The position numbers and the translations under genes were made by a program. Of a stretch of DNA of 64,000 nucleotides, positions 62,457 through 63,583 are shown one piece after another. The stretch spans positions 39,556,001 to 39,620,000 of the forward strand of contig OZ024753.1 of NCBI GenBank assembly GCA_964016885.1, in the 5' to 3' direction. Under the pieces are notes generated by a model, which searched no databases, was not told the origin of the DNA, and worked only from the letters and a program-made list of their open reading frames with translations. Every line of letters begins with the position of its first letter. The stretch's first letter is position 1. The DNA comes from Eledone cirrhosa. Lineage: Eukaryota.

Positions 62457-62694
62457 TGTATATATATATATATATATATATATATATATATTTATATATA
62501 TATATATATATATATAAATATATATATATATATATATATATATATATATATATATTTATATATATATATATATATATATAAATATATATATATATATATA
62601 TATATATATATATATATATATATATATATATATATATATATATATATATATACAATATATTAATAAATGGAAACTATATTTATAAAACCATATT

Positions 62695-62760
62695 TATTTT
62701 ATTATACATATTTCAAGGGCAACCAAGGCAAATTATGGTGCGCTTTCATCAGATAAAATA
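62695..62760 (-). ncRNA. Hammerhead motif (family B) in the left arm of a 131-bp inverted repeat
   Basis: minus: TATTTTAT-CTGATGA-AAGcgcacca...tggttgccCTT-GAAA-T-atgt-ATA^ATAAAATA. Confidence 0.8.
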
Positions 62761-62859
62761 CAGATTTGTTTTATAAATAAATATTGACATACCCGGAAAA
62801 AAAGACAACCTTTATGCTTGGAGCTTCCTGGATAGTCATTTATTTATAAAACAAATCTG

Positions 62860-62925
62860 TATTTTATCTGATGAAAGTGCACCATAATTTGCCTTGGTTG
62901 CCCTTGAAATATGTATAATAAAATA
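62860..62925 (+). ncRNA. Hammerhead motif (family B) in the right arm of a 131-bp inverted repeat
   Basis: TATTTTAT-CTGATGA(62868)-AAGtgcacca...tggttgccCTT-GAAA(62906)-T-atgt-ATA^(62917)ATAAAATA; perfect 8-bp stem I. Confidence 0.82.
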
Positions 62926-63583
62926 AATATGGTTTTATAAATATAGTTTCCATTTATTAATATATTGTGTATTTACTCCACTTAATTGTTGAGTGCTTTA
63001 TATCAGTTATAAAAATGTTTAAGCTTGTTGAATCCCAACAAATTAAATATAACCTCTGCATATATATATATACACAGATATTTACACATATATATCTACG
63101 TATAGATATATGTATATATATGTGTGTATATATTTATATATTTATATATATATATACATATATATATATATATAAAAGTATTTAGCAGCTATCATTGTTA
63201 CAATTCCTGCTGTTGTTGCTATTTCTACTGTTGTAGCTATTGTTGCATGCTATCAAGTACATTATCATGGCACAAGCACTAGAAATGTCTTTGTCACAGC
63301 TACAGAGTCCCCTTCTCCTTGCAACCCTTTCTTTGGCCATTGTTCTATGACTAGATACCCTTCCTATCACCCACCACTTTACAGTGTTTACAGGGTTTTT
63401 TTTATCCTGTAGATCAGCAACTCTAAAAAGTAATCCTGCCCTTGGCACAACTAAAGATTCCCTTGAGGCCATGTTTTTTGGCATGGTGTTTTTGTTTTTT
63501 TCATGGGGGATATAATTATTTCTGATCATTAATTTTAATTAGTTTAATTAATTATTATTTTTTTTTTTTTTAATTCTTTCCAG

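Follow-up and report, generated by a model that had tools for sequence, protein, structure and literature searches.

A head-to-head, hammerhead-bearing fragment of a Penelope-like element in a UTP11 intron of Eledone cirrhosa

A 131-bp inverted repeat with two hammerhead motifs lies in an intron of UTP11 in Eledone cirrhosa. With a probability of about 0.9, we read it as a short non-coding insertion that represents the hammerhead-bearing end of an abundant Penelope-like element (PLE) of the Hydra clade, laid down in a TA repeat as two head-to-head pieces and likely a passive passenger of UTP11. The insertion belongs to a dispersed family and has that family's two-piece layout, one-sided tail and fixed end points. 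All coordinates refer to the window, the whole stretch of 64,000 nucleotides that was analysed (contig OZ024753.1, positions 39,556,001 to 39,620,000, forward strand), and papers are cited by PMC number.

Structure of the insertion and its host intron

An earlier note, made from this DNA alone, had described 131-nt arms separated by a 55-nt spacer and differing at one position. Alignment confirmed this: the arms (62652-62782 and 62838-62968) are 130/131 identical, the sole difference being G at 62742 against T at 62878 (+ strand letters), and their match can be extended into the TA flanks. Since this difference is a G.U wobble in + strand RNA, the predicted 131-bp duplex is unbroken. The folding z-score of 62652-63058 is -28, far outside chance. 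The unit consists of a 186-nt inverted, tail-less piece and a 221-nt forward, tailed piece, placed head to head between TA tracts, and it has no ORF. It had been given an end at 62996; with its 90-nt tail it extends to about 63058. The 'spacer' is the reverse complement of a leader that naturally precedes the arm, as seen in L022, L024 and L031-L060, which have the leader in sense. The features are as follows.

57692-57785, + strand: UTP11 exon upstream of the host intron (in-frame splice)
62459-62651, no strand: (TA)n microsatellite left of the insertion site, seen in the sequence
62652-62837, - strand: the element end (pLTR) as an inverted piece that has no tail, its 131-nt arm preceded by a 54-nt leader
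62695-62760, - strand: type I hammerhead motif, antisense to UTP11 and in the form most common in the family (C.C in stem II)
62783-62836, - strand: leader of the element (the 'spacer'), beginning at 62836, a genome-wide stop point and putative transcription start
62837, - strand: added G, the genomic element having C at this position; putative copy of the RNA cap
62838-63058, + strand: forward piece, truncated at its 5' end, with the 131-nt arm followed by the 90-nt tail
62860-62925, + strand: type I hammerhead motif, sense to UTP11, with a 2-bp palindromic stem III and C-to-T at 62878
62969-63058, + strand: one-sided 90-nt tail, which in L129 continues for about 50 nt to the ORF start codon
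63059-63180, no strand: TA-rich tract right of the insertion site, seen in the sequence
63584-63714, + strand: UTP11 exon downstream of the host intron (weak PF03998, in-frame splice, run X4 contig)

The leader contains a splice-donor-like G|GTATGT (62787-62794, minus strand) some 10 nt ahead of the arm, and an acceptor-like TATCAG lies in the tail near 63005; from these two sites, a 5'-UTR intron spanning the hammerhead would be possible. Read on the minus strand, the inverted piece starts at the putative transcription start. If the element's promoter is internal, this piece (62652-62836, - strand) could drive an RNA that is antisense to UTP11 and carries the unmutated hammerhead.

UTP11 itself lies on the + strand. 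A Pfam search matched PF03998 at 38945-39010 and 39925-40029, and the exon 3' of the element (63584-63714) scored E 3e-4, below the Pfam cut-off. In translation, exon 57692-57785 joins exon 63584-63714 in frame, which places the host intron at 57786-63583. The Pfam matches and the in-frame flanking exons thus bear out the proposal that the inverted repeat lies within a UTP11 intron, with its + strand hammerhead in sense to the gene. The predicted ribozyme cut site after 62917 was measured at 667 nt before exon 63584-63714, in agreement with the roughly 670 nt given before. Run X4 yielded one 793-nt contig that matches the window only at about 63583-63714 and looks spliced. In the contigs listed, the repeat part was dominated by other copies, and the letter differences seen there are family variants. 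The number 6 given earlier to exon 63584-63714 is provisional, since regex searches missed several UTP11 exons: the first, the last and one in the middle. Two further repeats were seen nearby: a minisatellite with a 98-nt period in the same intron (60000-60780) and, past exon 63584-63714, a SINE-like repeat (63740-63890) that presumably resembles octopus SINEs.

The two-piece layout recurs across the family

The genome contains 2,568 exact matches to a 31-nt hammerhead word, against 0 for a control word. Among the first 100 matches there are 12 outward-facing opposite-strand pairs within 4 kb, 9 of them within 250 nt, and no inward-facing pairs; the chance expectation for outward-facing pairs is about 0.006. 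Extrapolating from 9 close pairs per 100 of 2,568 matches, we estimate a few hundred similar palindromes genome-wide. A search with 62783-63060, a query that itself favours copies with an inverted arm, returned 2,312 candidates. The inverted arm was present in 25 of the 30 best loci, and in these 25 the outer ends are constant while the inner junctions are variable.

For the layout itself we used 58 distinct loci (60 minus 2 duplicates) that had been picked on tail or hammerhead and not on the junction; the samples were the top-scoring 40 of 740-2,312 candidates and are biased to young copies. An adjacent inverted piece was found in 40 loci and was absent from 16, with 2 unparsed. The two-piece loci pair a tailed with a tail-less piece in 38/40 cases; tailed-tailed and tail-less-twice arrangements each occurred 0 times, and 2 were unclear. 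Two hammerheads are carried by 21/58 sampled loci, the window copy included. By informal inspection, (TA)n surrounds both the window copy and most of the loci viewed. A locus-specific inversion is unsupported, as this is how the family normally inserts.

The same data make it extremely unlikely that the inversion is an assembly artefact. The long TA tracts on both flanks would favour one, and the junction is unbridged by any contig among the matches listed. However, the same layout is found with different junctions on many contigs, the arms differ at one base, and the limits of both pieces coincide with the two end points and the leader base that are constant in the family.

Several neighbouring observations concern the family at large. 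A sister-family palindrome lies 27.7 kb downstream (L132:7200-7700, C13 about 39.646 Mb); there it is the inverted piece that has the tail, and this piece, too, terminates in an added G at the corresponding leader base. L102, L107, L109, L035 and L041 show a minor third end point, which lies some 54 nt inside the tail. Fragments of other Penelope-type endonuclease ORFs adjoin family copies in L055, L057, L062, L063, L037 and L049, which suggests TA targets in common. A candidate full-length copy at C1:7.22 Mb was rejected because it consists of two separate stubs.

The earlier note had also called the insertion recent. The window arms show 1 difference in 128 scored positions, compared with a mean of 2.2% over 21 palindromes, and 0-1 differences are found in 5/21 (P=0.22). 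The unpaired leader of the window copy has 3 differences from the family majority, and so does the forward piece, where two are at variable sites. The family is young, and the window copy does not stand out within it by these comparisons; a recent insertion has weak support.

The parent element

Long copies connect the repeat to a coding element. In L129, the arm and tail are followed by an ORF start with RWR and DKT, and the arm appears again at the 3' end, so that a hammerhead-bearing pLTR is found both upstream and downstream of the ORF, as in PLEs. In L061-L065 and L129, a single ORF for reverse transcriptase (RT) and GIY-YIG endonuclease is continuous with this repeat. A YRDD-type motif is present in 121/121 proteins and a GIY-YIG-like motif in 104/121; among 120 listed homologues, CxxC/CxH occurs in 114, DK[TS] in 113 and CxCx5C in 112. 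PMC8557442 gives an RWK-like motif, DKT, a CxCx5C linker, CxxC and CxH around E and N, and (TA)n targets as Hydra traits, and the L129 and L064 ORFs contain all of these motifs (RWK-like, DKT, CxCx5C, CxxC, CxH). An inverted 5'-truncated copy with a one-sided tail is described as typical of PLEs (PMC8557442, PMC3846280), and this is the arrangement of the window copy and of 38/40 two-piece loci.

The parent ORF gave no Pfam match and no PDB match. Among the homologues scanned, RVT_1 and GIY-YIG Pfam matches were weak, each in 1/15. An Atlas search with the parent ORF returned RT/GIY-YIG-bearing clusters at 0.94-0.96, and the best match of the element protein is from Argonauta, with 41% identity. 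The domains were assigned from motifs, from look-alikes in the Atlas and from comparison by eye with published Hydra proteins. The element spans more than 3.1 kb aligned between L061 and L063, a stretch without the ORF start, and thus exceeds the length of generally <3 kb given for Hydra elements. We rejected the Neptune clade since its CX2-5CxxC linker was found in 0/120 homologues over the region scanned, and the Hydra motifs fit; a non-LTR retrozyme was rejected because there is one sense and one antisense motif only, with no tandem same-sense monomers. Judged by its motifs, the parent is an EN+ PLE of the Hydra clade. The searched literature contained nothing on this element family.

The same evidence bears on another way in which such a palindrome might be mobile, namely as a fixed unit. 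This could be a non-autonomous retrozyme, or a DNA element of MITE type whose terminal inverted repeats are the 131-bp arms. Either would be short, non-coding, of high copy number and constant at its outer ends, as our copies are. However, the inner junctions vary between copies, the tail is at one end, the arm is continuous with the RT-endonuclease ORF in long copies, and no tandem monomer array is present at the window locus. We regard a fixed mobile unit as highly improbable and retain the Hydra-clade PLE as the source.

Origin of the two pieces

Of 96 piece ends, 29 fall in one 12-nt stretch of the leader. Among exact matches, the base before the leader start is C, as in the genomic element, in 654 copies, G in 152 and A/T in 188. 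In the first 20 copies of each class, this base was a junction in 20/20 for G, 18/20 for A/T and 2/20 for C; from the class counts and these samples of 20, about 39% of the copies that reach the leader start base stop exactly there. G makes up 45% of the non-C cases, compared with about 20% by composition (P 2e-25; 8e-9 against a 30% null). A lone G lies directly on (TA)n in 4/20 sampled G copies, and about 7/20 sampled G junctions could take their G from the partner piece. The inverted piece of the window copy ends in such an extra G (62837, minus strand). In LINE-1 and SVA, an extra 5' G has been read as a copy of the cap (PMC4859970); the searched literature contained no report of an untemplated or cap G at PLE 5' ends. 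Our data suggest that the inverted piece is a run-off copy of the start of a capped, uncut sense RNA.

The arms also agree with each other much more often than expected if they had been sampled independently. At three lineage-diagnostic sites, they were discordant in 1/34, 4/37 and 1/38 cases, against 12.8, 13.6 and 7.9 expected. This fits arms that come from one source element or were homogenised, and it also fits fold-back copying or gene conversion. Arms derived from unrelated family RNAs are unsupported. In 4/40 two-piece loci (L098, L110, L122 and L123), the pieces overlap by 0-2 scored nt.

We consider it fairly probable that each insertion joins one product from each RT start site, with RNA from one source element, and that many of these products run off at the capped 5' end of sense RNA left uncut by its hammerhead. 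In such a scheme, the element's endonuclease would nick a TA tract, and reverse transcription would begin within the element RNA at two places, the end of the tail and a site 90 nt before it. The copy without a tail would run to the capped 5' end of the uncut RNA and gain a G there, and the two products would be joined at their inner ends. As to how they are joined, we lean towards priming on both target strands. This fits in vitro work in which a related protein extended both target strands from two internal RT starts (PMC11167929), and it fits the 4/40 loci with barely overlapping pieces.

A different origin from the same element is fold-back copying, in which one strand primes its own copy and the centre of the hairpin is later lost; an antisense template for such self-primed copying has been proposed (PMC3846280) and might apply here. 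The agreement of the arms at lineage-diagnostic sites would be expected from it, and L083 and L121 are nearly symmetric about the leader start. However, each window piece contains sequence that is absent from the other (leader versus tail), the barely overlapping pieces do not suit it, the added G at one constant leader base suggests that the template was a capped sense RNA, and the in vitro extension of both target strands is a precedent for two starts. Fold-back copying is thus possible but doubtful, and we continue with two starts on a capped sense RNA.

The hammerhead cores

Both hammerhead cores are present and face outward, the + core from 62868 and the - core from 62752. They have the type I core elements (CUGANGA, GAAA, NUH) together with stems I and II; the + hammerhead has an 8-bp stem I and a predicted cut at AUA^ after 62917. 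We compared 14 divergent, hand-picked motifs, two of which are those of the window unit. Stem II pairs 1-3 and 5-7 are kept in 13-14/14, with compensatory changes. Because stems I and II are kept in this way, the fold is under selection within the lineage of the element. At the fourth position of stem II, 13/14 motifs have a C.C mismatch, and the lone exception is the sense copy of the window, with U at 62878. This site is a CpG at which the arms are discordant in 15/38 palindromes (the query enriched this sample for T), as expected for decay after insertion.

In sister hammerhead families (L061, L048, L100, L034, L042, L018, L020 and others), the fourth position of stem II is likewise an unpaired C.C between pairs that covary; the conserved C.C is possibly a tertiary contact. 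A lone sister-family hammerhead between TA tracts was also noted in the window at 4264-4324 on the minus strand, with a short stem II, C.C and a palindromic stem III.

Stem III is the weak part of the motif. It consists of 2 bp on a 4-nt palindromic loop; its pair probability in the monomer is 0.0004, and forcing it costs 2.9 kcal/mol. A stable monomer stem III is thus lacking, and the palindromic sequence marks the motif as the dimer type. An Rfam scan gave no match at gathering thresholds. The earlier description of two intact hammerheads holds for both cores and the 8-bp stem I, with a caveat for the 2-bp stem III and for the sense copy, which has U instead of C. Copy ends piling up at the predicted cut site were looked for, and the idea was dropped as 2/69 unforced piece ends fall there, with no peak.

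No other same-sense hammerhead was found from 38,000 to about 90,500 (window numbering), the next same-sense motif being about 27.7 kb downstream, inside its own palindrome. In a published test, a single minimal motif of the dimer-dependent type did not cleave (PMC4209133). The motif of an anole element required that element's protein for cleavage, and the RNA used for insertion was uncut (PMC11167929). By analogy with these systems and from the predicted fold, the sense hammerhead probably would not cleave UTP11 RNA unless a same-sense partner or the element protein were supplied.

Pairing of the arms in UTP11 RNA

It had been proposed that the duplex sequesters the sense hammerhead, and in silico folding agrees. 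When the RNA of 62652-63058 is folded, the arms pair with each other at a probability of 0.998, whereas stem I forms at about 1e-66. The antisense arm is transcribed ahead of the sense arm in UTP11 pre-mRNA, and their pairing there would give a duplex of 131 bp in which the sense hammerhead is buried. As modelled, this duplex is a plausible ADAR substrate.

The further proposal, that the inverted copy is a built-in silencer, fared less well. On this view, the inverted arm persists for its silencing of an active sense hammerhead, one that would cut UTP11 pre-mRNA if left unchecked. Besides the complete burial of the motif in silico, it can draw on a fold that is under selection in the element lineage, with stem II covarying across sister families. 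It can also draw on work cited second-hand (PMC2995048), in which a fast ribozyme within an intron stopped splicing while slow hammerhead cuts left splicing unblocked. In addition, tandem retrozymes are reported in a preprint to be excluded from introns in vertebrates, which implies that active intronic hammerheads can be selected against. However, the two-piece layout is a common insertion product (40/58 loci), stem III is of the dimer type, no other same-sense motif lies between 38,000 and about 90,500, the mutated copy is the sense one, and the related single motifs cited above failed to cleave on their own. Given the stem III probability of 0.0004, the inactivity of the published single motif and the protein dependence of the anole motif, the monomer is unlikely to need silencing. 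Since both element ends carry the motif, one hammerhead lands in sense whichever way the element inserts. We therefore judge a silencer very unlikely; the inverted arm is most likely a by-product of element insertion and not a silencer evolved for UTP11.

Discussion

The element closely resembles known PLEs of the Hydra clade, including Hydra-1_Obim of Octopus bimaculoides (PMC8557442). It shares with them an RT followed by a C-terminal GIY-YIG; the RWK-like, DKT, CxCx5C, CxxC and CxH motifs; (TA)n targets; an end hammerhead with a palindromic stem III; an inverted truncated copy; and a one-sided tail. It differs from the usual description in its length (>3.1 kb versus <3 kb), in its tail (90 nt versus 30-40) and in a long stem II, where a C.C mismatch is conserved and 10.1-11.1 is A-U. 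It is a separate family from Hydra-1_Obim, whose hammerhead sequence differs by eye. Similar to the minimal hammerheads of metazoan PLEs (PMC4209133), ours have type I topology and an unstable palindromic helix III, and they occur in dispersed truncated copies and as opposite-strand pairs, reported there to lie 100-700 bp apart. In contrast to those, the window motif has an 8-bp stem I, and A-U replaces the usual G10.1-C11.1.

Further parallels concern the insertion process. As in Adineta vaga Penelope (PMC3846280) and the anole Poseidon PAc (PMC11167929), an inverted pLTR lies head to head with a tail on one side, with AT-rich targets and, as we read our copies, two internal RT starts and an uncut RNA template, although the clade differs and the ORF of our family starts about 50 nt past the tail and not inside the hammerhead. 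LINE-1 offers another parallel: a G added to its fixed 5' end is interpreted as copied from the cap, and twin priming creates an inversion in the course of insertion (PMC4859970).

The pieces of LINE-1 twin priming are not known to overlap, whereas those of the window family usually cover the same sequence and so form a palindrome.

For UTP11, the insertion is probably of little consequence, being one among many similar palindromes. RNA editing is known to be heavy in the animal group of the host, and as a class, intronic 130-bp perfect hairpins are plausible dsRNA and editing substrates. The element is ordinary in kind and not specific to UTP11, and its ends are a modest mechanistic lead. The cited papers describe the self-copying mechanism of PLEs as unresolved; three features, namely a stop at one constant base with an added G, the strict one-tail rule and the concordance of the arms, are testable constraints on how PLEs are copied. 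If our reading of the ends is correct, the transcription start of a Hydra-clade element would be mapped to one base, and a capped sense template would be favoured over the antisense self-priming model.
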